Positions 11,693 to 64,000 of a stretch of 64,000 nt of DNA are shown here, one piece after another (position 1 is the first letter of the stretch; each line of letters starts with the position of its first letter). Position numbers and translations under genes: made by a program. This DNA is from Dipteris shenzhenensis (lineage: Eukaryota): the NCBI GenBank assembly GCA_047967505.1, contig CM106538.1; one strand, written 5' to 3'. The notes beneath the pieces are model-generated. The model saw nothing but the letters and a program-made list of their open reading frames with translations. It did no database searches and was not told where the DNA came from.

Positions 11693-12570
11693 TCAGAGAC
11701 TTGTTGTTATTGTGTTAGCCATTTTTGTCATGTATGAAGTGCAATATGTTGTAGCCGAGTATGGATCGATAATGTATTGTATGTCCATGCTTGATTGCCA
11801 TAAAAAACTCATTTCATGATTGAAAGCATTCGTGAAAATGTCTTTTGGTTGTCTCTTTAAGAACATGGTTGTTTTTTCAATTGATGAATGTAGTGCTAGT
11901 ATATATGTTGAAATGTCAATTCCAATATCGACTACCCATTCAGCAAATGCCATTTGTGAGTCAGGTTCTATACGATTTATACTTGTAGAAATAGATTGAT
12001 ATATTTGTTTGTAACTATGAATCATGCTTTGTGATAGAGGTTCTAGTATCACTATTTCATGTAGTGGAGGCTTTGGATAGTGAAATCAGCAATTGCTGCT
12101 GTTGTTTTTTTTTCAAGTGAATGTGTGTTTATACATTTGTATGTCTTTAATGTGTGTTGGTAGCAGGCTCCTGTCGCATGTTATGTATTTGTCAATAAAG
12201 GAGACAATTTTCTCCTCCTCATGAATACCATATATAGGTCCAGGTTGCACACATAAAATTCCGTGTTCATGCTGGCTTCCTCTATTTTGAAATTTTGTAA
12301 TGAAAAAGTAGTCCATGATATTTTCAAGTAATCGTTTGTCTTTTCTTATCAAATTTAGGATTTTTTGGAGTTTATGTGTGTAATATCTTACACATATCGT
12401 CGGGTTGTCTCTTATTAGTTCTCTTATTGTGACATTCGAGTCTTTGTCTTTCTATTGTGTTTTCTTGTTGTTTGAGTACTTTTGTGGTAGACATCTTGTC
12501 AAAGGTTCCCATAATCATTCTGCACACGATAGCATCATAAATAAGGTTGGACGTCCCAATTAACATCTAA
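11693..12570 (-). pseudogene. HUH Rep (rolling-circle initiator) domain of the Helentron
   Basis: Motif 1 LGRPTLFMMLSCAE, motif 2 KFQNRGSQHEH (12263-12295), FIDKYITC, and motif 3 MDIQYIIDPYSATTYCTSYMTK. Confidence 0.9.
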
Positions 12571-31396: not shown

Positions 31397-34329
31397 AAAA
31401 TACAAACTATTATGTTTCTTACTTAATGCTTGCTACATTTGAAGATTGACAATCGATGTACCAATTGCGTTTATAATAGGGAAACTCTAAAAACTAAGGT
31501 CTTTTTGGCATTCTTCATGAAAGATGAAGAAGGATTGGGACATGAGAAGTGATGCAATCGACCTTGTTGTTGAGATAGAAACATAATATCACTAGGGTTC
31601 TAGTAGGCATTTATGAAGGCATAGAAGGAGTTGCTCAGCCTTCATCTTCCCCAGGGAACGAGAAATATGGGCATCCTTGGAAAGGGGAGCGATTTGTGTG
31701 TAGAAGGAGCGTCAAATTGTTCAGCTTTATTTTTTGAATTTGATCATTGTTTTTTAGAGGGCACTATCATCTGAAAGGATTTGGCGTATTATATTATCCC
31801 AAGTGGAGGTACCTATGGATTGTGTAGAGACCAACATGTATAAATATCTCTCAACGGAATGAAGCTTCGACTCTTTGGGGTTCAGTGTTCAAGCTCACTA
31901 TTGTGTTCATGTGATTGATCTTCACTGCGTCCATGCTCTCTTACACTATCGTGTTCTAGCATGCCCTTACCCTTGCACTCTCTACCCTTGTACTCCCTCC
32001 TCCTCCTCCCTCCTCCCTCCTCCTCCTCCTCCTCCCTCCTCCTCCTCCCTCCTCCTTCCTCCTCCCTCCTCCTCCTCCCTCCTCCTTCTCCTCCCTCCTC
32101 CTCCTCCTCCTCCTCCTCCCTCTCCCTCCCTCCTCCTCCACTCTCATCCCTCTTCCTCCTCCTTCCTTGGACCTCCTCCTCAACCCTTACCCCTCGAATC
32201 TACAAAGGAGACTAGCTCTCCACTCCTCAACCTTGGACTCCTCCTTAACCCTGCAACCCCCTCTGAACCCTAGAACTCCTAGTTAGTTCTCTCAACCCTG
32301 TCCCCCTTTGAACCCTGAAATCCCCTTAACCCTTGAACTCCCGTGGAGGCGAGAGCCTGCATCAATTGTTATAATCAAGCCCTCTTTCTCATTCACATGT
32401 GCATGAGATCTAGTTTCCACACTTTAGCCTACACCCCTCTCCGGAACATGACCCGAGAACCTATGCTACACTTGTGAACACCTATGCTACAATGAGCAAC
32501 GACACAACTGTAGGTGACCAACACCCTCGGAACCTACATTTGAGTAAAACAGAGACAACATTTGGCACCGATGCCAGGGAGGTTAGCGCTTGAAGTGAAA
32601 GCGGAGCATGTGCTTGCATGTGTGAAAAAAGAACCCCATACGAAAAACCATTCAAGATACATCCCTCAAGGCAAAGGAGTGAAAAAGTGCTTCCCAATGA
32701 TGCAAAAGGATAATGTTAAGATACAAAATCACATCAATACAGTAAACACCCAAAATTAACCCTTAATCCCTCCACATCGTATAAAAGCAATACCAACCCC
32801 CCACATTTCTTTCCCCACACTTTTGCTAGCCACTTCCTTCTCCAAATTCCGTTAAGCCTTCAAAATTTCCATCTTTCTCTATTTTCCATCCTCCAATTTC
32901 TTGCGAATGACTAGCCCACCAAAGGAGGCCATAAGGCCCTCCTTTCCAAAACTCCCCCCCCCCCCTCATTTCACAAACCTCGCCTCTTGGGGCCTCTTGC
33001 ATCTCCGACGCCCCCCCCCCAAAAAAAAAAAAAAAACCTAAGCCGTCATCGCCGCCGTCGACACCCTCCCCCCCTCAAGAAAAAAAAAAAAAAAAGGGGT
33101 TAAACTAATCCCAAAAACTAACTGTAGGTTAGGTTAGTTGAACTTAGGTTAGAATAATTGACCCTAGGTTAGGTTAATTGACCATAGTTGCTCATACATT
33201 AGGTTAACTGACCATAGGGTTAGATTAAGTTAACTGTGTATCAGTTATAGTAACTAAGTTTAGCTAGTTGGGCTAATTACAGTCACACTAACTGATATAA
33301 TTAGATAGCTAGGTTAGGTTAAGGATTAGTACAATACTTAAGTCTCAACTAACTAGCAGTTAGATCACAACCATAGTTAGGTCAAAGGTCTAGGACCATT
33401 CACACTTAGACCTAAGGACAAAAAGGCCCCTAAAATCCCCTAACTTTGAGGGTCCATATCTTGCCTGTTTGGGACCCGAATTTGACCCCGATTGAGCCAC
33501 AACTTCACACATGAAACCATTGAGATATGAGAAATTTTTCTAGCCAATCCCACACCATTTTAGGCATCCATATCACTCGTCAATTTGCGCCCCCGTGTGG
33601 GCCCCTTTTTCGCACTAATTGGCTCATAAGATTCGGCCGAGACCTCCGATTGACAATCCGTCTGCACCGGCACATTTTCCCACTCACGTAGAACAATCCT
33701 AGGCACATTTTTAATGTGATGGTCCCTATGATACTAATGCATCTCCAACCCCCTAACCATTTATTCCTTCTTTGGGAGCCCATATCACGGCCGTTTAAAG
33801 ACCAAATTGCACCTGGATTGAACCCAAATTTCATGCATGTAAAGATCTATTGTAAATGAAGTTTTTCAAAGTGTTTAACCATCAATTTTGGGCTCCGGTA
33901 GTTGCCTCACATAGGCACTGGTTTCGACCCGTCGTTTGCTTATTTTTGACCATTTTCGGGTGCATGAAGGTCAAAATCATAATCGGACTTTGTAGTCATA
34001 TGCACCCACCTGAAAGTCACAAATAGGACTTGTTTATGCACCTCATATATGGATGAAGACTAGCCCCTGCATACTTTTGTGAGCTTTCTTCAGCCCTTGA
34101 CACTCTTCAAGAATTCAACCTCTCACCATCGACAAGTAGCATGGAGGAAATCACAATTGAAGAAGCAATAACTAGCAACGAGCAAAGTCAGAACACCTTA
34201 AAGAACGACGCAACCGCAACAACAACAACAATGGTAGATGGCACTTTGGTAAATTGGAAATGCCAAAGTACAATGGATGAGGGGACCTTGTCAGGTTCCT
34301 TCAACTCTTCGATGCCGCATGTGTTGCTG

Positions 34330-34900
34330 GAGGTGACCAGTCAAATGAAACCAAAGCTGCTTGGTTCCCGATGGCCCTAATCAGTGAAGCTTTGGAATGG
34401 TACCTCGACCTTCTCGTAGAGGAGAGAGCCACATGGGAGTTGCTATCTGACCAGTTTTTAGAAGAAGATTCTAAATAGAAAGGCTGCAAGATGACCCTGC
34501 ATTACAACTCAGCAATATAGATATGCACAAGAAAGAAAAGGTCAGAACATACTTGGGAAGAATGAAAAGATTAATAGCAAAATGTGATCCGTGTCTGGAC
34601 AATAAGTACCTCATAGCTTGGTTCATCTCTGACCTGAAAAAATCCATTTGCAAGGATATGAAAAAAGTCAACAGCTATGCACATTTCAGTGATGCTCATG
34701 AAGCTGCAATTGACATTTGAGGATGGCATGACCAATTCTGATAGCAACAGTGATGGCTATAAATCAAGTCATCATGACAAGAAATCTTCAAAGAAGGGAA
34801 GCACTTCCCACAAAGATTGCACCAACGAAGATAGAGTGGAAGCCATGGCCCTAAGAGTAAAAGAAGAAATGATACAAGCCATCGAGCAAAAGTTTTCCAC
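34330..34900 (+). pseudogene. gag fragment of element 1
   Basis: LISEALEWYLDL...TWELLSDQFLEE and EKVRTYLGRMKRLIAKC, resembling a retrotransposon gag core. Confidence 0.7.
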
Positions 34901-34904
34901 TGGG

Positions 34905-36315
34905 CACAAAGTTTTCATTGCCGATCACATGTCACAATTGAGGACAAGAGAAGAGCCAAAAGGAATAGAAGATGATCTACCAAATGCTGCATTATTTCAA
35001 ATAGATGCTATGCCTAATTGGTATGCAGACATCATTGGGTATTAAATGGCAGGAATACCACTTCCTAAAATGAAAGTAGTGGATGCTAGGAAACTAATTC
35101 TAAAAGCTGCACCCTATCAACTCATTTCAAGACAACTATACAAGATGGGCAAGGACTAGGTTTTAAGGAGATGTGTGATGCCACATGAGATCATGCCAAT
35201 CCTTAGTGAAGCACATGAAGGCATTACAAGTGGACATTTCCAAGGGGAAGAAACAGTAAGAAAAGTCCTTCTCGCAGGATACTAGTGGCCAATACTTTGG
35301 TCGGATGCCTATGAATATGTCAAAAGCTATGACGTATGCCAACGAACTTCTAAACCACAACACAAAGACTTCAATCCCCTAACAACAGTCGTTGCACAAA
35401 ACCCTTTGAAAAATAGGGGATTGATTTTGTGGGTCCCATCCATCCAGCAACAAAAGGAACACAGGCATACTACATAATTGTGGCCACATATTACTTTACT
35501 AAGTGGGTTGAAGCTAAAGCTATCAAAAAGGCAGATGCCAAAAGCACAACAAGGTTCTTGTACGAGAATGTGATCACCCAATTTGGATGTCCCATTGAAA
35601 TTGTGTCAGATAGAGCACACATTTTGTCAATGAGGTCATCCAAGAACTCTTGTCTGGCTTTATGGTGATCCATAGAAAGAGCACACATTACTACCCCCAA
35701 GGGAATGGACTGGTCGAATCCACCAACAAAATTCTATGTATTGTCCTCACCAAGGTAGTAGAACCAAAGCGTTCTGATTGGGCAAATAAACGAAATGCAG
35801 CCTTATGGGCATATAGAACCACACTTAAGGTCAGTACAGGAAATACACCTTTTCAATTGGTGTACGGCCTTAAAGTTGTGGTCCCACTGGAATTTGTAAT
35901 ACCTAGTCTATGCATAGCAGTACAAGAACATATGGGAGATCATGAATCACTGAAAGAAAGACTCTACCAATTAGAGAAGCATACAGAGACCAGATTACTT
36001 GCCTACCATGCCATGACAACAAAAAAATGAAGAAGGAAGGCATGGTTTGATAGAAACCTCAAAGACAAAGACATCAAGGAAGGTGACCTGGTTCTACTGT
36101 ACAATACCAAAGTCCATAAGGGCAAGCTCAAATTTCTAGGTCAAGGACCCTATAGAGTCAAAAAAATGAATCCCATCAGAGCTGTACTACTAGAAACAGT
36201 GGATGGAGTCCAGTTCACAACAACAATAAACGGGAGCTGACTAAAGCACTACTACATCAACATGCAAGCCATCCCTGACAATAATGAAGATTTGGGGGTC
36301 CTAAGTCTTCCATAG
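34905..36315 (+). pseudogene. Integrase of element 1
   Basis: ILSEAHEGITSGHF...DVCQR (HHCC), GIDFVGPI, FTKWVEAKAI, IVSDR, YYPQGNGLVE, ALWAYRTT, GPY. Confidence 0.95.
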
Positions 36316-36717
36316 TTAGGACTAGATTGTTTCACGAGCACTCACTATAGCATATGTATGCCTTCGCACATATAGGTAGTTTCAATTGATTTCAACCTAG
36401 GGCTCAGAGGTGATGATTGAGTCCTAGCTACCCTATGATTCCCTTAGCAAATTAAGCATATAGGAGGAATGCCTACCTCACTAGTCATGCATAGTGCACC
36501 CACACATTTCGAGCACCATGAATAAATTGCACAAATAAAAGCCCCAAGAGATACTTGTTTTAAATCCACACACACAACACCCTCATCACAAAAAGACTAA
36601 TATACATTAGCCACTCACAAAAGAAACATGCACTCTTGGCACATGGGACTATATTGGCACTATCAAATTGGGACCTAATTCATGTGTGCAATGCCAGGGT
36701 GAAGACAGTCCAATAAG

Positions 36718-39700
36718 ATGGGAAAAAGGTCTACAATGCCATCGGCAAAGAGACACCATGCCAAATGGCCTAAGCCTCAACCTCAACAGCCCTCCTCAAA
36801 TCACCAACCTAAAGAAGGACACAGCGTAGAATCACCTTCCCAGAGGTCAGCACCAAATGACCACGGCTAGTGGTTTTGGACAATGATATTGATGAGCAAA
36901 TAAATGCAACATGCCAAGAAGAAATGCCACAGAACCAAGGGATACTAGAGGCAGGAGAAATTGAGCTAAAGCAATTGACTATGCAGGATGCAGGGGTAGA
37001 ACACCTTGAGGACCAGACCAACAAAGATCTAGCAACAGATGGAACAATACAACTTGTATGGCCACGAGTCTCAATGTTTGCCATGTCACCCAATGCTTAC
37101 AACTTCTTGCAGTCAAAGGGACTAGGTAGTCTTTTTGAGAAGCTAAAATCCTTTTCACCAACACCTGCTATGACAGAATACATTTGTCAATTCATAACAT
37201 CATATAAAAGTAGAGAGTTGGAGAAAGATAAGTATGGAACAATAACATATAAAGAAAAGACCTTACAGATCTACCTCAGTAGGTCCACTATGCAGGAGGC
37301 TTTCTCATTTCTAGATGCACGAGAAGAATATCCAAAGAAACATTTGGATGCAAGGTTCTCTGAAATTTAGGATTTATTCCCACCTAACACAAAGTCACAA
37401 AGCGGGGGAATACGCCATGATACGATTCTGGACCCCATATGCAAAGAGACAGCTAAGTTTTTGGCTGACATTTCCAATCATTTAGGAGTGAGAAAAAACT
37501 ATATGTCAGTAAAAAATCTCACTCCTTGGTAGAGCAAAACTACAAGATTGGGTTCAACACATATCCTTGCTACTGCTAACCAATTATGTATCCGCCGCTA
37601 CCCATAATGGCAAAAGCTACATTTCCCATCTATTGGCCATAATAATTGGGTTTGCAATAGAGAAAGAGGATGACTCTACACCCCTCTCAACACAAGATAT
37701 AGAGGACTTTGAAGCATTGATATTATTGCCAGAATGGGAATTAGACCCTCCACCTACTTTCAATGAGGATAGAATGGAAGGGCAACAATCTGAACAGACT
37801 CTAGAGAATGACAATGTGGAACTCTGCCAAAGAACACTACAACTCAGTTTAGTCTTGCTCCCGCAACAAAAGGACTCGAGCATGGAGATCCACGAGGATA
37901 CCATTCCACATAATGACTTTGCAAGAGATCCGAATAGCATACCTCTCCAGGAATCACAAGTCACCAATGTTGACAACTCCACGACTCTAGAGTCACAACC
38001 CCCAAATGTCTCTAGTGGTACCATACAACAAACTGTTGTTCAAGACGTAGATCAAAATTCCACATGGGCACATGGGAATCAACTGTATGTCCAATACAAG
38101 CAAGGCCATAGCACATTCTAGATCATACAACATCATAGCCAACAGTTACAACAATGGTCTCAATTATTTGCTACCATGGTGTCAGATGAGCAAGAAAGAG
38201 AAATGGAAAGACAGATGCTCCCATCACTCCAATCCAAGTTGCAAAGTGCCGAGACTGAAATTATGAACCTCAAGGAAAGCATGGCAGAACAAATGCAGCA
38301 ACAACTCCTTGCACACAATGCTCTAGCAAAAAGTAGAAAGGATGCCCTACAAGCCACGGTTTCTCTTCAAGATAAACACCTAAAGCCACTTGTGATGATA
38401 TCAAGAAGGAATTGGTGCAATTAAATGAAAGATTACTACTTCAAGAGGATCAGCTCCATGCCACAGAGACACAAACAATGAGCTGCAAAACAATCTCAAA
38501 GAGGGTGAATGTCAAATTCAAGCACTAGAGAAGGAAGGCATGGCATCAAGGGAGATATTTGTGCACACCAAAGCATAACTGGACACTCAAGAACAAGAGA
38601 TACTCCAGCTCCACATGCTTAATGATCAATTTCCAGGGCATCCAAAAGCAGCTCAACAGTTTAATAGTCTAAAGCTTGCATACACCTCCACATTGGGTAA
38701 GTATAAAGATAAGTGCATAGAGTGGCAAAATCAAAAAGATATAATTTCCAAGTTGGAAATTCAACTACTGGGTCAAGCTGATGATGATGCAGAGGGGTCA
38801 GCACAAGATCTTTTGATACAAGGCATCACTACATTATACCAAGAGCTTGTTGCAGTTCTCCAGTAAGAGGATCACCTTGAAGGAAGAATACGCATACTCT
38901 GGAAACACTTGCAAATCAAAATGTTACATGCAGTATCTGGTCTTGATTGGACAAGACTAGTAAGCACAAATAATCTCCGAGATCTATGCCTGCACATGGA
39001 TGAAGATGAGAGGAATGTGTTCTGTCTCTTAGTGCATGCAAATCTCATACAGTTAAAGGCTGATGCAATACTACTATATGAATGCTTGATGGGAAGCCCC
39101 CCTCTTCGAGTAGTATCTGGACTCCTACCTTTATTGCAAAAATCACTAGCAACTTCCATGGGATACAACTCCCTGGAGAATCCAAAATTAAAGTTGTCAA
39201 TGCCTACCACAAGCGACAAGGATCTGCCAGAGGTATATGTGGTCTACGTTCAATCTAATCTCCCCTATTTTGCCACTCTCTATTCTGATCTACTCACATC
39301 CCTACCTAACTCCAGTACCATCCTCCATACCTTTCCAGAAATCCATGCTAATCCATATTCCTTGCCATGCCTCTTTGCCCATGCCTCTCAACACTATCAC
39401 CTAATCCAAGAATCTGACTCCTATAGTTACACCTAACTTTTTTCCAACACTTGACAATCCATCCCTTGAGGATTATCAAGTTGCTAAATCAATTTGTCCT
39501 TCTCTCCCTCCACTTTCCACCAACATCCCTACTTCTAACTTCTCGAATTCACTACTTGCTTTGACCTCAAGCTTTTCCCCTATAACTTCTTCCTCTCCCC
39601 CAAGACCACATGTTCCTCTGATCTCCCTTGAGTTTTCAATGGAAGACACCATTAATAATTCCATCAATGAGCTTCAAGAATTGGATAATCCAATTTGCTC

Positions 39701-40476
39701 ACCCACAAGATACAGATAGGATTCCCATGCTTGGCAATCCCATTGGTGGTTTTTGGAGGCAATACCCAAACATGCAGTTAAGAGGAGGATGGGACCTCTT
39801 GAGAATTTCAATGAGTATCCGCCAAGCACAAATCACTCCAAACATCAGCATGAAATTGGAGCCACAGCCTGCTTGGCATAGACCAAAGCTACTAAATGAA
39901 AACTACCTCCTTGAATACATGCAGGATCCATCTTCCTTTCACACGCATCCCACATTTGATGCGGTGCCCCATCGCTACCGGTGGGATGCCAATCATCATG
40001 ATCCAGATAACGCAGATGCTCCTCGCAATTGGCCATTAATCAATAGAAACTCTAAAATCAAATGGACAAGGTAGGAAACACTCATCAGAGCCTTGGACAG
40101 ACATGCATCAATTATGCAAAGCAGTTTTGACAAAACACTGAAGGAAAGTGTAAGATATAGTGAAGCCTTAGCAGTCATCCTGGAGGTGTCCCTCACCATT
40201 GACGACCATTTGCCCAACCTCAGCTTCAATCCAAATCAATAGATAGATGCTCAAACAACAAGTCACCTCTTTCAAAAGGCCATATCTCTTCAAGGGCGTC
40301 ATGTTTGCTTGTTTGAAGAAATGGTTGACATTGGCTTCTTAAAAACTGAGCAAGCAATCTATGATGTTCGTGGATTACAAGGAAAAAATTGACAAGAAGC
40401 TCGCTCCATCTATCACTACCGCCATCTTTACCATACTCATTGGGTAAAGACAACCGCATCACAACATCATCTGTAG
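36718..40476 (+). pseudogene. Long extra ORF downstream of pol (env-like position), function unknown
   Basis: Chain of same-strand ORFs (36870, 37567, 38176, 38615, 38909, 39628) linked by single stops or frameshifts and ending about 40 bp before the PPT. Homologous to 56114-58257 and 43935-44905. Confidence 0.75.
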
Positions 40477-40750
40477 ACCCAACCATAACCCGAGGATGGG
40501 TAATCAAATTGGTTTAGGGGAGTTGTTAACCTTGTGGCAACAAGGGCCAGAAGTGTAGTCTAGGACAACAACTATGAGAGCATTGTGTGTGTAGAGTAGC
40601 GACAAAGCTCTACTTGTAATATCTTGAGCTTGAAAGATAGTATGATAAATCTTAAAGGATGAGGATAGCCAAAATCCTCTCTAGAAAAGATCCAATCATA
40701 CTTGCAAAATCAAGATCTAGAGAGAAAAACACTAAAAGCCTACACTTTCG

Positions 40751-40870
40751 GAGGTCCCTCCACTTTGTGTAGAGACCCAAAAGGTCCTCCCACTTTGTGT
40801 AGAGACCCAAAAAGTCTGCCCACGTTGTGTAGAGACCCAAAAGGCCCCCACAAAAGTGGAGGGACTCCTG
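40751..40870. repeat. 30-bp tandem repeats in the 3' LTR of element 1
   Basis: cactttgtgtagagacccaaaa-containing unit occurs three times, with a partial inverted copy (aaagtggagggac). Confidence 0.9.
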
Positions 40871-41057
40871 TCCAAAAGGTCTCCTACAAAAGAGGTCCGA
40901 CCACGGAGGTACTTATGGATTGTGTAGAGACCAACATGTATAAATATCTCTCAATGGAATGAAGCCCCAACTCTTTGGGGTTCAGTGTTCAAGCTCACTA
41001 TTGTGTTCATGCGATTGATCTCCATTGCGTCCATGCTCTCTTACACTATCGTGTTTT

Positions 41058-43930
41058 AGGGCGATAGTCGGATCAACGTAGTCGGTGGAACCGACTAGTC
41101 AACCTAGTCAGTGAAGCCGACCAATCAACCTAGTCGATGGAATTGACTAGTCATCCATGGAATATTTAAGGAATATTCCCTATACTGTCGCCTTAGGGGC
41201 TCTTGCCCCCGAACCCCCACTAGGGGGGCCAGCTGGCCCCCAGGCCCCAGCAAGAATAAGGGGCTCCCACACAATCACCTTTCTACCATCAATAGTCTCA
41301 TTGTTTTTTATAGACCTCATCTGACATGCAAGTCAGGATCCATCCAGTGTCTCGAGCTCAGACATGGCTTCTCCTCATATGGGGGCCTTACAACTTGAGC
41401 ACCTTGGACCACTAGTGGTTACCAGGACGGTGGGGCGTTGAGCATATCTAACATCCCCCTCAATGTCCACCTGCAAGTGAACTGAAAGTGAACTGCCTTC
41501 TCAGCCCAATGCTGAGTCTCTGAAGATGACCCTGAAGCTGATCCTTCCCGAGTGCCTTGGTGAAGATATCTGCTCCATTTTGGTCTATTGGGATAGTAGA
41601 TCAATTCCACTATCCCGTCCTCGATCAAACCATGCACATAGTGATACTGAATCTCTATATGTTTTGTGCGTGCATGAAACACTGGATTTTTAGCAATGGC
41701 CATGCAACTTTGATTCTGCTGAGAGATGAAGATCTTGCCTAGCTCTTGCCAGACTTCAACCCCCAAACAGTAGTGCATCAAGCCTAAGTTTATTATTTCA
41801 AACTTGTGCTCAATGCCTTTCTAGTCTGCTATATCATGTCTTCATAGTCACCTGTAATAAGGAGATCATCCACATATAGAACAATAATAGTAGATTTTCC
41901 ACCTTTCCTATACACATACAAGTTAGCATCCGGGGCACATCTTTTGAAGTTTAATTTATGAAAGAATTTGTTTATCCGTTGGTACCATGCTCTTGGGGCC
42001 TGTTTCAGCCCCCGTACAGAGCCTTCTTCAGCTTACATACCTTGTTCTTGGGATAAGGGGCCTCAAACCTTGGTGGCTAACCACGTACACCTCCTCCTTG
42101 AGGTCACCATTCAAGAATGTTGATTTAACATCCATTTGATAAACTGGCCACTTTTTATGAGCAGCCACCGATAGTACTATGCGAATAGTGGTCATTCTGG
42201 TAGTCGGAGCAAAAGATTCCTGAAAATCAAACCCTTCAACCTATGAAAATCCTTGTGCAACCAATCTGGCTTTGTACTTTTCCAAAGTCACATCAGCCTT
42301 GTACTTTACCTTCCAAACCCACTTGGTGCCAACAACCCTTGTGTTAGGTGGTCGATCTACCAGCTCCCAAGTTTCATTCTTCATGATGCTGTCATATTCT
42401 ACTTGCATAGCGTTTTTCCAATCTCAGTCTGCAAGTGCTTCCTCCAAACTCGTAGGCTCCTTAACTTCTGCAATAATCTCAGCCATCAAGGCCATATTGA
42501 CTATGTGAGCAGAAGCCCTCCTTTGCTCCTCGGTTCTCTGAGACCACCTTGGTCCATCTGCATGCTGCTCAATAGACATAGGCATCTAGTTATCATGGTC
42601 GTAGAGCTACCTTACCCATTGCGGCAATGGCTTTTCCAGTGGTGTAACAATAGGTTGGTGACTTAAACCTTCATCATCTGATATTTCCTCCTCCTTTATA
42701 ACTCCTGGGACAAGTCCATAGTGAATTACCTCTTCGCTTGATGATAAAGTGGAGAGCTCTTCTCTATCTCCATTGCATGTGGCTGCTCCCTGAACACCAC
42801 ATCGCGGCTCGCTATGATCTTCTTTGCCTCTTGGTCATACAACTTATAGGCTTTCTTCTCATCATAATAGCCTAAGAAGATACATTTGATGCTTTTTGGT
42901 TGTAGCTTGTTTCTCTCTTTGTCTGGTACATGCGCATAGCATTCACACCCAAACGTTCTAAAATGGGAGACAGATGGCTTCTTACCGATGTAAGCCTCGT
43001 GGTGCTTTACCTTTGAGTGCCTTTGTATAGCTCTACGATTAAGGATGTAAATTGCAGTATTGACAACCTCAGCCCAAAAGTGGTTTGGCAGTCCAGCACC
43101 TTTCAACATACACCTCCCCATCTCCACGATGGTCTGCATTCGGCATTTAACAACCGAATTTTGTTGAGGCATATGTGGTGTCGTCGTTTGTCGCTTGATC
43201 CCTTTGCTCTTGCAAAAATCTCCAAACTCTGTATAAACAAACTCACCACCACCATCCAATCTGATTTTCTTCACTTTTCTCCCTGTTTTGCTGTAGCCAT
43301 TCTTTAAATTTACCAAAAGCTTGAGCCTTTTCACGAAGAAAGTACACCCATATTTTCCTACTATAGTCGTCGACAATCAATAAAAAATAGGAAGATCCCC
43401 CCAAGGCCTGTGTAGGCATCTTACTGCACAAGTCAACATGCACCAACTCTAGAGGAGCGTTTGCTCTATTTTTGCTTTCTTGTGGGAATGCCTTTCTCTG
43501 TTGCTTGCCCATCATGCAAGCTTCACATGGCTCTTTGATTTCTACTACTGCAAGTAAGTGAGCAACCATACCTTGCTTCTACATCTCCTTCAGCACTGCA
43601 AATCCAATGTAGCCGAATCTTTCATGCCAAAGTCTGCTTGTGCCCACTCCAACAGTGGCTGTAAGAGCACTTAGCTCATACAGGTTGTTTGTTACTCCTT
43701 ACTCCTGTGCCAACAAGATTGCCAACACTATCCAGAATTTTGGCTCCTGTCTTGTTGAACCTCACCTCATGGTCAAGGTCAGTTATGGAAGCAGTTGATA
43801 GCAAATTTCTCTTGATTTGTGGAACATACAGCACATTAGATAGTTTCTTAACATCTCCATTTACAGAAACAAATGAAACCATACCTATACAAAATACTGT
43901 GTCATTTTTTGCTGATGGAAGCACAAGTAG
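41058..43930 (-). mobile_element. Ty1/Copia element (protease, integrase, RT, partial RNase H, PPT, truncated 3' LTR)
   Basis: [103 protein letters not shown] precedes TGTTAG at 41453. Confidence 0.95.
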
Positions 43931-43934
43931 TGTC

Positions 43935-44905
43935 GAACGTGATGACGAGGCAAGGAGAGAATCTGGGGACATGGGGGAGAAATATGGCAGAGTGTTAGTT
44001 GCAGAAGGGGGAGTAGAGGGGAGGGGGGGAAGAACTGGGCAACTGGTTTGAGCAGCTTGGTAATCCTTAAGGGTAGGATTAGCAAGGGAGGGGAAGAAGC
44101 TAGGTGTAAGGGGCTCATAAGTTTGTGACTATTGGGTTAGTTGAAAATGGTAAGAGGCATGAGCAAAGAGATGATGGAGGAAATAGATATTAGGATGGAG
44201 CTCAGGGAAGGTTAAGAGGGTGGTAGCAGCAAGGGTAAGTGAGGTTATGATGTTGGCAGAAAGAGTGGTTAAATATGGGAAGTTGGATGTGAGATAGGTG
44301 ATGTCATCTTCCGACACTTCTTTTTGCTGGTGCGATGGGATCATCAGCTACATGGGTGGGATGTCGGTTATGTTTTGCCTTGCAAATAATAGTGATGGCC
44401 TTTGTAGCAATGGCAACAAACTTGCAATAACTCTGAGGGGAGAACTACCCATGAGGCATACATATGCAATGAAAGCATCCATCCTGAGTGCTATAAACCC
44501 AGCATGTGTAGACAAGCAAAAGAGATTTTTCTCATCTTCGGACAAGTCTTGGCAAATTATGCATAGGGTTTTAGTCCTGATGGAACGTTCCCATTTGATT
44601 GTTGGATGAGCAGATATGATCCTTATTTGGAGTTGCTTCCATTCGATAAGCACACGTGCGTTGAGGTGATCTTCCACTTGATGAGCAGCCACAAGCTCTT
44701 GGTACACCACCATTGTGCATTGTAGTGGGGCTTCACTGGTGTTGTCTTCCAATGCCTCATTGTTGTGCACTAGCAATTGGAGTTCAAGCTTGGAGATGAT
44801 TATCTTTTGGGAATGCATCTCATTCATTTTTTCTTTGTATTGATGTAACAAGTCGTTTTGGACCTGCATTGTGTCTTGGCTTTCAGAGTACATGAACATC
44901 ATAGG
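43935..44905 (-). mobile_element. Third copy (fragment) of the Athila-like extra ORF
   Basis: IISKLELQLL...YQELVA...WKQLQI...CLMGSSPLRVIASLLPLLQ is homologous to about 38740-39430 and very similar to 58050-58257. Confidence 0.85.
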
Positions 44906-44939
44906 AACCCCCTATGATGCCAGCAGATGACTCATGTTA

Positions 44940-51879: not shown

Positions 51880-54800
51880 TCCATAACCTATCACAAACAG
51901 GTCCACCACCTTGTAAAACCATGGCTAACCTGCAATGCCTCCATGTATCAGAGATTCATGTTTCACACCCATAGCCTTAAGAATCCACCCAACATTCTTT
52001 GAGTTCATGAGATTTACTGTGTATGCTAGATCCTCCACTCACACATGAAGAACCAATCAATCTAGAGGTGCCATTCTTTATGGTTGACCTCGATTGGAAT
52101 AATGACCTGAAGAATGTGCCCATACCAATAAGGACTCAGAATTTCCTTGGGACCTTGAAACTGAGGCTAAGAATGCTCGATTTGAAGATCAAGTCTTTGA
52201 CAACAATGACTTAGCCATTTTGAATTCCCTTATGGTGGTTGAGCTTCCCAAAGTTGAAACTCCAAAGTTGAATAATAGCAAAAGATCCTGCAAGAAAGCT
52301 AAAGGAGGAAATCACCCCGCAAAGCCAAGGCCAAACACTTCAATGAATTTGAACAAGTCCAAACTAGGATCGTTGAATTGTATCTTGCCAACAAGCCAGC
52401 TCCCTCAAAATCTAAGCCATCTCCTCTTGAATAGTCCCCTGATGGACTTGAAGAAATATGCACATCAAATGAACCCTTGCTTGGGGAATACTTTGCCAAT
52501 GGAAAAGTTACCCCATAGTTCCCAACATAAGAAGTTTCAAAAGTATAAGCCACATGCGCAGATGAAGCTTGATCAAAAGACTACAAAAAAAGAAAGTCCT
52601 GAGCCTAACAAATTGGTTAATGATACTATGCCACCCAATACCCATAGCACATGTTAGCCTAGTTCAACACCATCAGAGGTTGATCTTTGAGAAGTGCCAG
52701 AGTACTTCAAGAACTACACAAGTGGTAGTGTCCCCATAGCAATTCCAAGACCACTAAGAGAATCTGAAGTTCAAGAAATTGATAGCATTGGAAAGACTCC
52801 AATCTATGAGGGATCAGAAAAAAATCAAACAATAAACCTCGCCCTTGAAGGGGAGGAAGAAAAATTAGTTTTCATTGGGAAACAACTTACACAGGAAGAC
52901 GAAACCAAGCTCAAAGCACTCCTCATGGAATACTGAGACTGCCTAGCATGCTCATACAAGGAAATGAAAGAAATTTCACTAGAAGTGACAGTACACATGA
53001 TACCTATAAGGGAAGGTGCCCACCCTAAGGTATGTGACCTTATCAAACAAATCCAAAATATGGCACCATGGTTTATGATGATGAACTGTAAAAACTCTTA
53101 GATGTCAGATGCATCTATGAGATCAAGCACACTGATTGGGTTTCACCCATCATCATCGTGCCTAAATGCAATAAGAAGCTAAGAATATGTGTTAACTTAA
53201 AGAATATGAATGCGGCCACAATCAGGGATCACTATCCCCTATCCCTTAACAGAAACAATGTTGGAAAAGGTGGTAAGTTTCAAGATATATAGCTTCTTGG
53301 ATGGCTTCAGTGGCTATAACCAAGTGCAAATTGCTCCTAAAGACCAATAAAAAACAACATTTGCTATAGAATGGGGTATTTTTGCCTATAGAGTCATGCT
53401 ATTTGGCCTTTTTAATGCCCTGACCACATTCCAGCAAATCATGTTCACAGCTTTCAAGTCATTTCTTAATAAGTTTTTGTAGGTGTTCTTGGATGAGTTG
53501 TGCATCCACTCAAACAAAAAAGACCACTTCAAATGTCTTGAAGCAGTACTAATCAAATGCAGGGAGTATGGCATCTCCCTAAATCCAAAAAAATGCCAGT
53601 TCATGGTCACCCACAGAGTCTTTTTGGGACACATCGTTTCTCAACCTAGGATTGCAACTGACATGGACAAAATCAAAATCATTATGGAATTGCCTCCTCC
53701 TACAAATTCCAAAGGTGTACAAGAATTTATGAGCCATGCTGGCTATTATAGAAGATTTATCTTGCAGTATGCCATGAAAGCCAGACCACTTTACAAATTA
53801 TTAGTGAAATTCTTATGGATAGAAGAGTGTGACCAATCCTTTGAGCTTTTAAAGTGGTGCCTAATCACAACACCCATCCTTATATCTCCCAATTGGGATA
53901 TTGATTTTCATGTTTATACTGATGGATCCAAGTATGCAATTGGGAGTGTACTTTGTCAAACCTGGTGAACATAAGAAACACTACCCATTCTACTTTGCCA
54001 GTTGACAACTCAATGATGCAGAGAGCAACTATACCACCACAAAAAGAGAAGCCCTAGCAATGGTGTATAGTGGTAAGAAATTTCGGCACTATCTATTGGC
54101 AAATGATTTTGTCTTCTACATCGACCATTAAGCATTGCTTTATCTTGTGAACCGTTCGTGCACAATAGGAAGAATAACCAAATGGCTCCTCTTGCTTCAA
54201 GAATTCAAATTCAAAATAGTGGTCCGCATTTCCGATCACATGTCTCGTGTCAAGTTGGAAGAAGAAGCCACTGGAGTAGAAGATGACTTGCTAGATGCCA
54301 CACTATTTCAGATAGATGCTGTTCCAGATTGGTGTGCAAATATCATTGGGTACTTAATGGCAGGAAGACCACCTCCTGAAATGAAAGCAGTGGATGCCAT
54401 AAAACTAATTTTAAAAGCTGCACCCTATTAACTCATTTTTGGACAACTATACAAGATGGGCAAGGACCAGGTTTTAAGAAGATGTGTAATGCCTCATGAG
54501 ATCATGCCAATCTTGAGTGAAGTCCATGAAGGCATTGCAAGAGGACACTTCCAAGGGGAAGCCACAACAAGAAAAGTCCTCACAAGCTACTGGTGGGCCA
54601 ACACTTTCGGCCAATGCCTCTGAATATGTCAAAGGCTATGATGTATGCCAACAGACTACTAGCCACAACACAAGGACTTCAATCCCCTAACAATAATTGT
54701 TGCACAAAAAACATTTGAAAAATGGGGCATTGATTATGTAGGTCCCATCCATCCAGCAGCAAAGGGGACACAGGCACGCTACATCATTGTGGCCACATAT

Positions 54801-57800
54801 GATGTATGCAAACAGACTACTAACCACAACACAAGGACTTCAATCCCCTAACAACAATTGTTGCACAAAAAACATTTGAAAAATGGGGCATTGATTATGT
54901 AGGTCCCATCCATCCAGCAACAAAGGGGACATAGGCACGCTACATCATTGTGGCCACATATTACTTTACCAAATGGGTTGATGCTAAAGTAGTCAGAAAG
55001 GCAAATGGCAGAAGCACAGCAAGATTCTTATACAAGAATGTGACCACCCATAATTCGGATGCCCCATGTGTCGGATAGAGGCACGCATTTTGTCAATGAG
55101 GTAATCCAAGAGCTCTTGTTTGGCTTTATGGTAATAAAAAGAAAAAGCACACCCTACTACCCCCAAGGGAATGGACAAAGGCCGAATCCACTAACAAAAT
55201 AATATGCATTATCCTCACTAAGGTAGTAGAACCATAACATTTTGATTGGGCAGAGAAACTAAATGCAGCCTTATGGGCATACCGAACCACACTCAAGGTT
55301 AGTACAGGGAATACACCTTTCCAATTGGTGTACGGCCTTAAAGCTGTGGTCCCACTAAAATTTATAATACCAAGCCTATGCATAGTAGTACAGGAACGCA
55401 TGGGAGATCATGCATCCTTGAAAGAAAGACTCTATCAATTGGAGAAGCATAAAGAGACAAGATTACTTGCCTATCATGCCATGAAAATAGAGAAACACTG
55501 AAGAAAGGCATGGTTTGACAAGAATCTTAAAGCCAAAGACATCAAGGAAGATGACTTGGCCTTGTTATACAATGCCAAAGTACACACGGTTAAACTCAAG
55601 TATCTAGGTCAAGGACCCTACCGAGTAAGAAAAATTAATCCCATCAGAGTTGTGCTACTAGAAACATTGGATGGAGTCCAAATCACCATAGCCATAGATG
55701 GGAGTTGACCGAAGCACTACTACTTCGACACACAAGCCATCCTTGATAAAAATGAAGATTTAGAAAACCCAATTCTTCCTTAGTTAGGATTATATTGTAT
55801 CATGAGCGCTCACTTACATATGTACGTCTTCACACTAATAGGTAGCATCAACCGATTTCAACCTAGGACTCAAAAGTGATGCTTGAGTCCTAGCTACCCT
55901 AGGAAATCCCAACAACAACAAAAAGCATATAGTTAGTCCCTACCTAATTATTAGGTCACATGCACTCACACGCTTTCACTTAGGCACATAGTTGATTGCA
56001 TGAATAATTGTGCCACACACTTTCATTCCACACTCTCAAAGCATGTGTAAAAATAAGATCTCTTACAAACACACACAAATGTCATACCTACATGCCAACT
56101 AATCTAATGATCAATGGTACACCATATGAACATGGATGCAGATTTTGAAACAATGCTGCCACTAAAGATGATGCGAAGAAAGAGCCCACCGCCTCAACCC
56201 CACAAGACCCCCTCCAGAGTTCGTAGCCATCTACCTCCTCTCAACCATGGTGACCATAGGCATTTGTGGTTCAGAGCGATAGCTCTGAGGAGGATTCTGT
56301 GCATGACATGGAAATCCAAGAAGAACAAATGCAACCCCAGTCGCCACTGGCCTACACAACCATTGATGGTGTGGGCCGCAGTCCTTGGAACTTGTGTGGC
56401 CACCTACATCGACTTATGCTCTTTCCAATGCAACAACATCTTTCTTAGAGCAAAGGGGTCTAGGCAGTTGTCTAAGAGCCTAAAATCCTTGGAGGATAGT
56501 CCTACAATGACCACATACATCAGGGACTTTCTCCATTCTTACCACTCCAGCGATGCACAGGTTGGCAAGTACGGCACCATCATTGTACATCAGAGCCCAT
56601 TCAACATTATCCTCAATAGTACAATCATTCAAAGGGCCTTCTCACTCCCAACACAAGGTGTAAAATACCCTACAAGGACTACTGAAGCTAAATTTCTCAA
56701 AGTACAGCCTCTCCTCACCAAGAGCACAAAGTTCTATAGGGACATGATATTACTTTGCACCATCAATAACCCTCGCCTCAAGGAAGTAGCACAATTCCTA
56801 TCCACAATCCTAGGGGTTAAGTGCAGTAAGAATAGATCCCTTCCACTCCACACATTTGTTTTGCTTGAGTAGGAAGCTAAAGCAAGACAAGATCCAGCAC
56901 ACTGTCATCTTCTTCACAAAAAAACTAGATGGTTCATCAGGCCAAAAATGTAAAATTCCACACTTATTGGCTGTAATCATCAATAAAGATCTACAAGAAT
57001 GAGAAATGACTTTGCCCTAGTCACCAAAACCTATTGAGGAGTTAGACATTCCCTTCTCATGAACAAGGGAGCTGTCACCAACTTCTCCTACTATCACATT
57101 GGCAAATGCGGATACCTCCGAAGAAATGCCTATTCTGGAGGTCAAAATTGAGGAATTGCCCCATGAGATGCTACAGCTCGGTGCACAACTGCAACCAATA
57201 TATCTCCAACAACAACAGCAGCTAGAGCCTGAGGCTACATTGGCACTAGCACCACCCATCAATGTGATGCAAGTCCATGAGTCACAAGGGGAGCTAGTGC
57301 CAGAATAACAATATGAATATTGTACCCAAGTGACTGACTTACCATTGGAACAACCCCCAACAAGTACTACAGAATCATCAGGATGGCTACATGGGCACCA
57401 ATTGTATTAGCAGTATCATGCCAATCCTCATCACTTTTTGTCATTCTCCATCATCAAGCTAGCCAAATGCTCCAAATGTTAGAACTATTCACTAGCTTGG
57501 CCAAGGAGGAACATGCACAAGAATTGGAAAGACTGACTATAGCAACAATCGAAGACCAATTCCATGGAATCTCCATAGAGGTCAGGGCACTTTGGGAGCA
57601 AATAGATGAGAAAGAGGTTGAAGAAGTGCGCATGAACCATGCTGTCCAAGCTCAAGAGAAGGCAATGAGGGATGTGACCTCCAACCTCCACCAAAGCCAC
57701 ATACAAGTGACAACAGCAGTACAAGCTACGACAATCCTACAAAACTCCACACATGCTCAGTAGATGGAGGAACTAGCACAAGCTCGACCCACTCTAATCC

Positions 57801-58257
57801 ACAAAGAAGAAGAGCTCCGAGATTGCCAAGAAAAGCTTGAAGACATGCAACAGTCTTTGGCAATTTCAGTATTAACTTACAAGGGACAGCCAAATTTTAA
57901 AGGACCAACTTGCTACCACTAAAGAGGCCAGCACATCTCAAGCACAAGTCTTGGACCAATGGTCCAATACCACTGAAGTCATTCCTCAACAAGTGTAGGT
58001 CACGTTGCAAATGAAAAAGCTTAAGGAGGCATATATATCCATCTGCCATAAATATAAAGAAAAAATGGATGAGTTGCAATCCCAAAAGATAGTCATCTCC
58101 AAGCTTGAACTCCAATTGCTAGTGCACAACAATGAGGCAATGGAAGACAACACCAATGAAGTCCCACTACAATCACAACGGTGATGTACCAAGAGCTTGT
58201 GGCCGCTCTACAAGTGGAAGAGTGAGTGCTTATCCAATGGAAGCAACTCCAAATCAA
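51880..58257 (+). mobile_element. Athila-like Ty3/Gypsy element 2 (RT, RNase H, integrase, extra ORF; truncated, no LTRs seen)
   Basis: WVSPIIIVPK, LRICV, YSFLDGFSGYNQV, VFLDEL, FHVYTDGSKYAIGSVL, NYTTT. The integrase is very similar to element 1 and has a 161-bp tandem duplication at about 54637-54960. Extra ORF at 56114-58257. Confidence 0.92.
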
Positions 58258-59294
58258 GAAAAATATCGATCAAAATTAAGAATTTTTAGTAATACTGAGT
58301 TTCACAAACATAATATTGAAAAAAGATGTCAAATCTTTAGGTAGTCCAAGTTTCGAGGTCAGGGTCCTCTTATCTGCCACCATCCAAACAAACAGATGCG
58401 TCAATTTTACAAGCAAAGACGTACGAGCAGGTTTATATGACCGTGTTTTTCAAGAGATTTTAAAAATAGTATTTCTTTAGGAAACATGGTTTTTACACTT
58501 TTATTTTCATTAGAACTAGATCCCTTTATCATAAAAATATACAGACTAGTCACTCATTCATTTTTACATAACATAAATCTTCTTATTCATAGACATCCCT
58601 TTGTACCCTTGGTATTACCTTAAAAAAGTATTTGAAAAATATTTCATTTAAGAAACGTCCCTCATAATCACTCTCAATATAATAATATTATACATAAATA
58701 ATTACTTATTAAACACATTTATATCATATGGCAATATCTTTCAAGTGTTTTTATAGTATTAATAGCAAGATATTTATGGACATGTTTCTACATAAGTTTA
58801 AATTACTGTAAATAAGTATTAACTTAGGCTTATATATCACTCTCATAAAATACATGTAATATTTAATACCAGGGATGATTTTTTCATGTTAGTTTCGTTA
58901 ATAAGCGAAAGTTTTATATGGCTTGTGAAATTTTATATGCTTTTATAAAAATAAGAGCTTAGTATATTCGCCACAATTTGAAACTAAAATTAAAAAAAGA
59001 GCTAGGTTTAGCCTTTAAGATTATAAAATTATAAATAAAGTCCATGAAAATTTGCCAAAGTTTTATATAATAGATAAATATATTTGGAAACTTTCGCCAA
59101 CATATTATATATACAATTTAAAAATTTGGGTAGATCTATAGAATTAAGCACCAAAAGAAGACTTGTGCAATCAAGTATAATCTAGTGTTAACATTTAATG
59201 TTTGCTAGAATGATAATTTTTGCTTACTAATTCCTCGCTAACTGTGGTGTCCTGTTACTTCCATTTTCACAAGTAACCCTTCCATTGTTTGCAG

Positions 59295-61599: not shown

Positions 61600-62485
61600 A
61601 TTGTTAGACATATGAAGGGGGTAATACGCAACCCCCTCAATTCTTGCAACAACAACTTGGGGGGTCCAAGTTAGGGGCATACTCCCACCCCCCATCAAGG
61701 ATGTATCCACTGCCTCCACCTGAAATGTATTGTCCTCCCTTAGATGCTTACCCTCAACATGGTGTATATCCTCACCCTCTGCATGGACCTCTGCATGGAA
61801 GATTTCCCCAGCCTCACCCACTAGCCCCCCTCCTTCCTACTCCCCTGACTCCTCTTGCTAAAGAACCCGGAGTCAATGACCTTGCCAAGGCCCTGAATGA
61901 TCTTCGGCTTGAGATGGTGGGCATCAGAAATCAAGCCAATCGCCCTCCAAGAGAACGTGCCAATGTTGTGTGCTACGAGTGCCACTAGAAGGGTCATTAT
62001 TGCACCGAATGTCCCAATATTCCAAGGGTGAATCTTCTAGGTGAATCAAGCACCGAGGATTCTGACGTAGAGGTCCTTAACCCCGAGAAGAGAAGTCGTA
62101 CCACCTCGAACCCCTCTCCAAACCATGGACCGGGCCACCCCAAGAAGAAGGTGCCCTTCTCAGAGCCCTCAGATGCTGAGATGGCAGACCCACCAATAGA
62201 GAAGACTAAAAGATCTTGCAAGAGTAAGTGGTCACCCTCGGATTTTTCTATCGGCTTAGGGCAAGAAGACTATCTGGTCATTCAGCGCCCTTGCTCATCG
62301 GTCTTTGAGCATCATGCTTCCTCAACTAATAGCATTAAGCCCTAAGGTGAGACGTGAGCTACAGCAAGGGCTCTCAACAAGGAGGAGCAAGAAAAAGGAA
62401 AAGGTACGAGAGATTTCTTCTATCTCTGAAGATATTGATCGGCACCTGCATACAGTTGATGTCATCATAGATAATTGCTATTGAA
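61600..62485 (+). mobile_element. Ty3/Gypsy gag C-terminus with zinc knuckle and pre-protease region
   Basis: Pro-rich region, DLAKALNDLRL, CYECH*KGHYCTEC (CX2CX4HX4C), QLIALSPKVRREL. Confidence 0.8.
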
Positions 62486-63073: not shown

Positions 63074-64000
63074 ATGGGAAGAAAAAAGAAAGTTCAAGCT
63101 CTACAGAAAAATACAAAAATGACATCTTTCTTATTACCTTCTACATCATTGGGCACTAAGATAAACATGTTTACAACATCAAGTACACCAGAGAATTCTC
63201 TCAAGTTCATCATCCATGAATCATGAAGCAATTTATCTGACTCTTGAACATGCTTTGGGCACAATGCATCATGCTAGAAATCAATGTTCTAGATCACTGC
63301 TTAATGATGATAGTTTTAATAGGGATTTGAGTTTTCAAGTCTTGGAAGTAGGGAAGATAGGATCACAAAACTGTAATCAAGGGAATGCAATTGGAATTGA
63401 AAATTCATCAGCTGGCACATCATTGACAAATAATGAGGTAGTGGATTTAACTGGATTGGAAAGTGGAAAAATGTCAAAAACAGTATCATCAATGTCAACA
63501 CCAACTGAAGAAGCCATTGAGAATGCATCACAAAGTTGCAACTCTTCAAGTAAGCGGAAGAGAAAGAGAGCTTGGGATATTCATAGGAATTTTCAAGAAG
63601 ATTGGGTAGCCAAATATCCTTGGTTAGACGTAGAACAAGTGGACACTGGAGATGCACCAAAGTGGGCCATTTGTAAAATATGCACATGGGCAAGGAAAAA
63701 GGAGGCATGGTTACAATTGAAGATCGATACGATTGAGAAGCATTGTGGGAAGGTTTACAAGACTGTAGAAGGTACAAGTAATGAAAAGAAAGTGATCAAA
63801 GAATGGGACAAGGAAAATAACTGTCACTTAAAAAATGAGATTGAGTACAATAAGTTCTTTCTTGCACAAGAGTCTAGCAGAAATAAAAGTGAAGGATCAT
63901 TGAAAAAGCGTTGGGAATGTATCGATGATCAGGTTGATAGAGAAAAGATAGTGCAATTCTCAACTATCATGCAAATATTGAAGCAAGGCCACTCACTGAT
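63074..64000 (+). mobile_element. N-terminus of a hAT-like (ZNF862/TTF-type zinc finger) transposase, runs off the window
   Basis: ATG at 63074 and one apparent frameshift near 63195, then open to the window end: KRKRKR (NLS-like), RNFQEDWVAKYPWL, CKIC, KIDTIEKH, HLKNE, KIVQFSTIMQILKQG. Confidence 0.7.

Follow-up and report, generated by a model that had tools for sequence, protein, structure and literature searches.

The stretch analysed here (hereafter the window) comprises 64,000 bp of contig CM106538.1 in the Dipteris shenzhenensis assembly GCA_047967505.1. Within it, the DNA at 36718-40476 (+), which follows the integrase of a decayed retrotransposon, had been singled out in an earlier reading of the letters (the original prediction) as an unexplained open reading frame (ORF) of about 1,200 codons present in three copies. 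With a probability of roughly three in four, we interpret this extra region and its homologs as three decayed copies, in two deep types, of a lineage-specific extra gene in the envelope-like (env-like) position of an Athila/OTA element, that is, an extra ORF in sense orientation downstream of the polyprotein (eORF-3'F). The three copies were real as loci, although only one is near-complete (copy 1), while one covers the 5' two-thirds (copy 2) and one is a 3' fragment (copy 3), and they belong to two types. The features concerned are the following:

35286..36315 (+): integrase of copy 1, the decayed end of its pol, with Pfam rve on 35417-35668
36330..36530 (+): similarity breakpoint between copies 1 and 2 (200-nt window identity), an inferred recombination junction
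36718..36873 (+): basic N-terminal tail opened by an ATG, in frame mod3=1; translation begins MGKRSTMPSAKRHHAKWPKPQP
36861..37532 (+): block A, conserved and globular-looking, frame mod3=0; in-frame TAG at 37368, final TAG at 37530-37532
37513..38424 (+): acidic/Q-rich linker followed by the first helical part in frame mod3=1, with a TAG stop in frame at 38119
38426..39436 (+): helices and the conserved block C in frame mod3=2, interrupted by TAA stops at 38576 and 38864
39405..39719 (+): S/T/P-rich tail, frame mod3=0; S+T+P fraction 0.40
39622..40476 (+): possibly coding stretch without a comparator, with a 150-codon piece at 39622-40074 in the ORF list
56111..58267 (+): copy 2 (type 2), 5' two-thirds; 56111-56872 open (253 codons), cut off near 58267
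43935..44911 (-): copy 3 (type 2), 3' fragment; 44911-44348 open (187 codons)
42726-43900 (-): copia-type fragment (Pol_BBD, rve, SH3_retrovirus) that adjoins and truncates copy 3 near 43900
31805-31959 / 40905-41059 (+): 155-bp repeat resembling a long terminal repeat (LTR), with a TATA-like motif; 94.2% identity

In copy 1, the integrase reading frame stops at 36240 and its LKHYY tail continues in the next frame to about 36315; the predicted spacer of about 400 bp then leads to the ATG at 36718, beyond which same-strand ORF pieces lie at 36861-37370/37529, 37513-38121, 38122-38424, 38426-38866, 38867-39436, 39405-39719, and 39622-40074. The translation from this ATG has the basic N-terminus that had been described, and the motifs FLQSKG, MTEYICQFITSY, KYGTI, QEAFS, ISKLEIQLL, YQELVA, WKHLQI, CLMGSPPLRV, and LLPLLQ are all present. 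The pieces do not make up an open frame, however: copy 1 is a pseudogene with at least five frame changes and four in-frame stops (37368, 38119, 38576, and 38864). The interval 36718-39719 amounts to 1,000 codons, or 1,119 if the last piece (to 40074) belongs to it, and the homology-supported length is about 970 codons, with support ending near 39630, where copy 3 is cut; the 1,200 codons first proposed are an upper bound. Beyond this point, the stretch 39622..40476 has no Pfam match and resembles nothing else in the window. Tandem repeats are absent from 36718-40476. The polypurine tract that had been placed at 40476 is not evident, the only purine run of at least 8 in 40300-40560 being 40379-40388.

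The homologs were recovered by tblastx where the original prediction had put them, copy 2 on the plus and copy 3 on the minus strand: 37044-37472 matches 56382-56809, 38525-38872 matches 57876-58222, and 38693-39596 matches 44848-43940 (-). The best E value is 7e-77 in sense versus 1.8e-30 in antisense frames, which places the conserved frames on the sense strand. After its open piece, copy 2 continues in other frames (56814-57308, 57338-57763, and 57873-58172), and in the copia-type fragment next to copy 3 the Pol_BBD match covers residues 78-117 of the ORF at 43676-44128 (-). All three copies are pseudogenes with stops and frame changes. Because copies 2 and 3 are 85% identical in nucleotides over their overlap of about 234 nt (copy 2 58047-58267), they were assigned to one subfamily (type 2). 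Copy 1, as judged from the alignments, is a separate deep type (type 1), and between the types DNA similarity is scarcely detectable (59-63% in patches). At the protein level, copy 1 shares with copy 2 38% identity in block A (126 codons), 30% across the junction and linker (135 codons), 23% in the middle part (copy 2 57338-57763; 94 codons, score 113), and 32% in the helices before block C (97 codons), and with copy 3 it shares 48% in block C (149 codons) and 40% in the tail (72 codons). The N-termini of copies 1 and 2 align weakly (score 41, 40% over 30 residues). In 200 codon shuffles each, the local alignment score never exceeded 49 for block A and 63 for block C, whereas the real alignments reach 191 and 351, respectively.

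The way in which the two types differ points to past selection on a protein. Identity at codon positions 1, 2, and 3 is 0.54, 0.63, and 0.29 in block A (126 codons) and 0.58, 0.71, and 0.30 in block C (149 codons), so that the third position (0.29-0.30) is at the random level; subtracting position 3 from positions 1 and 2 gives a bootstrap 95% confidence interval of 0.19-0.40 in block A and of 0.26-0.42 in block C, both well clear of zero. The proportion of nonsynonymous differences between the types (pN) is 0.35-0.42 against 0.84-0.93 for synonymous differences (pS), and identical residues use the same codon in only 13 of 47 cases in block A and 26 of 68 in block C. Since synonymous divergence is saturated, a numeric dN/dS is not obtainable for blocks A and C; the weaker blocks give a rough dN/dS of 0.2-0.5. 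Neutral drift to such a depth would leave no protein similarity, and we therefore conclude that the region evidently coded for a protein under long purifying selection, during which its synonymous sites became saturated. This agrees with the proposal of a selected protein-coding gene whose protein motifs are kept across diverged copies. A dN/dS near 1 is not seen in the deep comparison, and values near or above 1 occur only between the two close copies 2 and 3 (pN 0.11 versus pS 0.04 over 44 codons), as expected of dead copies.

In contrast to the extra region, the integrase of copy 1 is close to that of copy 2, with 76-86% amino acid identity, 81-88% nucleotide identity, a third-position identity of 0.68-0.82, and the same codon in 52 of 68 identical-residue pairs. 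Window identity stays at 0.81-0.88 through the integrase, is 0.68 in 36332-36527, and is 0.49-0.60 from 36528 onward, the fall thus taking place within about 200 bp past the integrase stop. Because similarity breaks so sharply after the integrase, pol and the extra region must differ in depth of divergence, and by this comparison the extra region is an evolutionary module distinct from the adjacent pol. Recombination (template switching) between element lineages at the boundary of pol and the extra ORF would be the simplest cause. A comparable situation has been described in Arabidopsis, where, according to Marco and Marin (2008, PMC2410132), recombination takes place between distant Athila families, and purifying selection acts on the gag and env-position ORFs that pol-less copies still carry. 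The break after the integrase and the largely pol-less state of copy 1 resemble these recombinant and non-autonomous lineages as reported there; the host is another one, however, the gene is unrelated in sequence, and all copies in the window are dead, with selection visible only in the deep comparison.

Copy 1 lacks protease, reverse transcriptase (RT), and RNase H. Its gag-like ORFs (34057-34886), gag-like by our own reading only and without a Pfam match, run straight into an RNase H/integrase linker (from about 34887) that is homologous to copy 2 from 54198, and its rve match is below threshold (23.4 bits, E 7.5e-05, versus a curated cut-off of 32.6). The 5' ends of both elements are rearranged. 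The 155-bp pair is the only repeat flanking copy 1, and full LTR limits were not found. Copy 2 contains RVT_1 and RT_RNaseH_2 in 53483-53968, followed by integrase-like ORFs at 54432-55705, and on this pol order (RT, RNase H, integrase) the element is assigned to the Ty3/gypsy LTR retrotransposons. Neumann et al. (PMC6317226) describe the Athila clade as lacking both the archaeal-type additional RNase H, which marks Tat, and a chromodomain. Neither a second RNase H nor a chromodomain was matched in the post-integrase pieces or in the pol of copy 2, which are decayed copies, and in copy 2 the gaps between protease and RT and between RNase H and integrase are too short for an additional domain. 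These features tentatively point to the Athila clade rather than Tat. The extra region itself lies in sense downstream of the polyprotein, is free of tandem repeats, and in copy 2 includes an open piece of 253 codons, where the definition of an eORF-3'F asks for at least 250.

Such extra ORFs are frequent. In the survey of Neumann et al. (PMC6317226), most OTA elements are stated to carry extra ORFs, which are highly heterogeneous; 3,372 Ty3/gypsy elements with ORFs of at least 250 codons fell into 314 mutually dissimilar groups, and a domain match was reported for only 21.4% of the extra-ORF proteins of Ty1/copia and Ty3/gypsy together. Whether they have any function is presented as debated (PMC6317226; ATHILAfinder preprint), and the ATHILA ORF is still without an assigned function (ATHILAfinder preprint; PMC11410651). 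The env-like proteins of the Athila lineage are characterized in PMC1142308 as having little mutual similarity, with none intact. As far as can be judged from such descriptions (PMC7264820, PMC1142308, PMC6317226), the extra region is like the eORF-3'F of Athila4, Calypso, Cyclops-2, and Bagy-2 in its sense orientation, its position between pol and the 3' LTR, and its short spacer, and also in being lineage-specific, scarcely similar between families, mostly degenerate, and in having helical segments. It differs from them in the lack of a convincing transmembrane (TM) segment and of a Pfam family and in its length of about 1,000 codons, compared with 487 amino acids reported for the 3' ORF(+) of sunflower Athila 14 (PMC11728184). 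The predicted unusual length therefore holds against the sunflower ORF, but such ORFs being common, the case is less unusual than it was made to appear. The long region between pol and the 3' LTR is also shared with Tat/Retand elements, as described in PMC11963269; their ORFs, however, are antisense with Transposase_28 (TRP28) or PMD, whereas the pieces here are in sense and match neither PF04195 nor PF10536. Antisense ORFs do occur at 39996-40513 (-), one of 79 and one of 95 codons and each in its own frame, just before the LTR-like region of copy 1, where Tat/Retand elements typically have theirs; these have no Pfam match and no comparator.

Searches for relatives of the extra region in Pfam and in sequence collections gave no significant match. 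No Pfam family was found at the curated level in any piece, and hmmscan to E<=10 with blocks A and C of both types gave nothing beyond chance-level, sub-threshold rows (HTH_56, E 0.048; Nop53, E 0.036; LRS4, E 0.073). No env-like, ATHILA ORF-1, Transposase_32, Transposase_28, or PMD family is thus matched in Pfam, and no full-length match to a described ORF was found. With phmmer, block C of copy 1 (285 residues, X at one stop) retrieved none of 1,835,955,588 representative sequences at E<=0.001. Word-index searches with block A confirmed no match among 365 candidates (copy 2 alone) or 1,554 candidates (alignment), and among contigs of JGI metagenomes 364 stretches fit the patterns without any being confirmed. 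The pattern CLMGSxPLRVxxxLLP occurs in one JGI contig (L001), which shares that motif alone and looks like a chance hit. The extra region therefore appears to have no detectable relative in the libraries searched.

The predicted protein has several distinct parts. The linker is acidic, as had been claimed, with a net charge of -20 in copy 1 and -11 in copy 2, and rich in Q, S, and T; the helices between linker and block C are proline-poor in composition. For block C, AlphaFold2 with a two-row alignment predicted two helices, residues 6-53 and 61-101, ahead of a small bundle of helices (residues 113-170), with a mean predicted local distance difference test score (pLDDT) of 56.2 and values of 65-82 only for residues 80-150. 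Foldseek found no match of this model in the PDB at E<=0.001, and VIA-align returned generic long helices only (best Z 5.9, residues 1-57). The block A model has a mean pLDDT of 32.7 and is unusable. Four block C residues are invariant between the types, C120, C132, H136, and C152 (copy 3 numbering). In the ESM Atlas, block C resembled RING fingers (zf-C3HC4; score 0.91, with RING proteins in all ten of the ten best matches); we rejected this assignment, as ligands 5, 6, and 8 are absent and only those four residues are conserved, no RING HMM (hidden Markov model) matches at E<=10, and the AlphaFold2 model is helical. A long coiled coil had been proposed between linker and block C. A first crude heptad score found nothing in most pieces, and by a second crude count heptad periodicity is weak and confined to short segments (11 and 20 of 300 shuffles reach the block C value), with the clearest segment at 38807-38917; the long helices of the AlphaFold2 model are of low confidence. 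The predicted lack of a TM segment is borne out only approximately: in a Kyte-Doolittle scan, neither a membrane anchor nor a signal peptide nor a hydrophobic stretch like a fusion peptide stood out convincingly, although there are borderline peaks, namely a 19-residue maximum of 1.75 at residues 85-103 of copy 2, which is not conserved in copy 1, and peaks of 1.55-1.65 in block C that are broken up by the charged residues R, D, K, and E.

We suggest that the product may have been a soluble, multi-part accessory protein, in which a basic tail preceded the conserved domain A and an acidic, disordered linker led to long helices and domain C. The basic tail could serve in nuclear import or nucleic-acid contact, and the hydrophobic, Cys/His-bearing helical domain C might mediate self-association or partner binding. 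Expression would be from a subgenomic or spliced transcript. The protein may have acted in trans for the element family, which would explain its retention in copy 1, an element without protease, RT, and RNase H. This picture of an accessory protein that was soluble and perhaps nuclear, associated with itself, and worked in trans is tentative, and taken jointly with the mode of expression its details have clearly less than even odds of being right. The less specific proposal of a selected, non-envelope accessory gene, made in the original prediction with anti-silencing, targeting, or a particle scaffold as possible functions, seems reasonable. In the window, the extra gene does nothing today.

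Several observations weigh against the interpretation as an orphan extra gene of an Athila element. The lineage assignment rests on the lack of matches and on gene order. The primer binding site of Brassicaceae ATHILA elements, complementary to tRNA-Asp/Asn, is TGGCGCCGTTGCC (ATHILAfinder preprint); this Brassicaceae-derived motif has 8 matches (<=3 mismatches) in the window versus 4.05 expected, and the best one (32563-32575, two mismatches) lies beside no recognisable LTR end. The orphan status is weakened because the databases cover the host lineage poorly: the integrase, used as a control, reaches at most 62% identity, and its named matches (Adiantum, Pinus) only 37-41%. The soluble and nuclear character is deduced from composition only, borderline hydrophobic stretches (1.75 and 1.55-1.65) exist, and both structure models are poor (mean pLDDT 56 and 33). 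Lastly, where block A ends, both types move to the +1 frame at a TAG that is aligned in the DNA (37530-37532 in copy 1 and 56870-56872 in copy 2), and for the interval between the linker part (B) and block C homology is insignificant in any frame pair (29 versus 17-25 in controls).

This junction raises the question of whether there was one gene or several. The TAG could reflect the presence of two ORFs, a splice acceptor, frameshifting by +1 at the stop, or decay that happened to coincide, and the region may have consisted of two or three adjacent frames or exons (roughly 270 codons for A, 300 for B, and 400 for C with the tail) that were joined by splicing, re-initiation, or +1 frameshifting, an arrangement we hold possible though rather doubtful. 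It is suggested by the aligned TAG itself and by the +1 continuation after block A, which in the comparison of copy 1 with copy 2 (mod3=0) scores 85 over 135 codons (30% identity), while other frame pairs score 31 and 38; a pyrimidine-rich tract precedes the TAG in both types, neither copy has an ATG close to where the +1 frame starts, and the net frame change between B and C is likewise +1 in both copies. Yet the copies have several other shifts that are not shared, such that coincidence of one in the same direction has a roughly estimated chance of about 0.2, the aligned TAG follows from conserved G/S-R codons that lie in the +1 frame, and the junction is covered by only two sequences. A mini-intron joining block A to the linker was rejected, since no GT...TAG donor corrects the frame in both copies.

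Block A may, alternatively, be a far-diverged ATHILA ORF-1/Transposase_32 domain (PF03078/PF20167) extended by a long helical C-terminal part, a relationship that would refine the extra-gene interpretation, being compatible with it, and that we regard as conceivable but unlikely. Block A of copy 2 has an ATHILA ORF-1 cluster as its nearest ESM Atlas neighbor (score 0.90, 151 of 256 features), and another cluster listed for block A has Transposase_32 on 14% of its members. PF03078 is reported from 16% of Athila elements (PMC6317226), and the sunflower Athila 14 ORF, as described in PMC11728184, has a nuclear localization signal and Transposase_32 at residues 133-312, a layout similar to the basic tail and the domain of about 150 residues (approximately 100-240) here, at the same position in the element. 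Against this, hmmscan found neither PF03078 nor PF20167 at E<=10 with block A of both types, some 700 further codons of linker, helices, and block C follow, for which the descriptions of that family considered here give no counterpart, and the Atlas itself flags the similarity as weak (fewer than 170 shared features, 4 of the 10 best in the family, recognition 2018 versus a mark of 2300). A true envelope, with block C as a counterpart of a class I fusion subunit (heptad repeat, Cys turn, and hydrophobic anchor), is improbable. The location is that of retroviral env, and the heptad-like segment 38807-38917 is followed after 20-25 residues by conserved Cys residues and then by about 40 hydrophobic residues (19-residue Kyte-Doolittle values 1.55-1.65), an order like that in HIV-1 gp41; copy 2 also has a basic N-terminus before its 1.75 stretch, and the block C profile matched only four PDB sequences at E<=10, all of them HIV-1 gp41 helix-bundle constructs (E 0.078-0.72). 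We rejected this match, because its score is summed over three repeated copies of one helix in engineered constructs; taken by itself, no stretch does better than E 1.5, and the matches listed include no natural gp41 chain. Moreover, there is no hydrophobic stretch upstream of the heptad segment that could serve as a fusion peptide (maximum 1.11 over 19 residues), charged residues interrupt the candidate anchor, no signal peptide is conserved, the model resembles no fusion protein beyond generic helices, and coiled coils and TM helices are, as noted in PMC4408406, too common to support Env. That block C and the preceding helices are at least a remnant of a fusion-type envelope subunit, with type 2 also having an N-terminal signal-anchor, we consider a long shot; if true, a plant element family would once have had a real env, swapped between lineages like retroviral env. 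Hardly more credible is the capture of a host gene, or of parts of one, by transduction. The sense orientation would suit it (PMC7264820) and the sharp similarity break after the integrase could mark the acquisition, but the gene occupies an identical position in both types and its synonymous sites are saturated, which argues for long travel with the elements, no homolog was found among 1.84 billion representatives that include some plant proteomes (Pinus, Adiantum), and no Pfam domain is matched.

Other features of the window surround these elements. The window as a whole is a nest of decayed plant transposons, with gypsy-type RT/RNase H/integrase, a copia integrase, a long interspersed nuclear element (LINE) endonuclease fragment, and a Helitron fragment. 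In the integrase of copy 2, a 161-bp tandem duplication (97% identity) lies at 54637-54958, and two relatives of the integrase (P0003 and P0004, 50-53% identical in the core) carry two tandem integrase N-terminal zinc-finger regions. Tandem repeats occur downstream of copy 1 in the LTR-like region (30 bp x 3.4 at 40752-40851 and 26 bp x 3.1 at 41073-41153), and 41058-41229 resembles 28618-28438 on the opposite strand (79%). Directly 3' of the upstream 155-bp repeat, a long CT-rich, low-complexity run (31960-33100) gives rise to proline/serine/leucine-rich pseudo-ORFs and is followed by homopolymer C and A runs. No Rfam family was found in 30000-60000. The LINE endonuclease-like fragment (Exo_endo_phos_2, E 2.6e-4, below cut-off) lies at 9097-9426 (-) and the Helitron_like_N fragment (E 2.6e-8) at 12116-12451 (-). 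At 61608-62345 (+) there is a gag-like piece of another element with a CCHC-type knuckle (CYECH.KGHYCTECP, by our own reading), and a 278-codon ORF without a Pfam match at 63165-63998 (+) is open at the window end.

The interpretation that we favor, an extra gene in the eORF-3'F position of an Athila/OTA element, belongs to a class that is itself known; what is added is an orphan member with evidence of long purifying selection and of modular exchange. The window copies are dead, and the orphan protein defined by the conserved blocks A and C does not alone settle the role of such proteins. In Athila/Tat/Ogre elements, ORFs of this kind downstream of pol are common but still unassigned in function, and the case described here argues that they may have a function and be exchanged as modules in an env-like manner.

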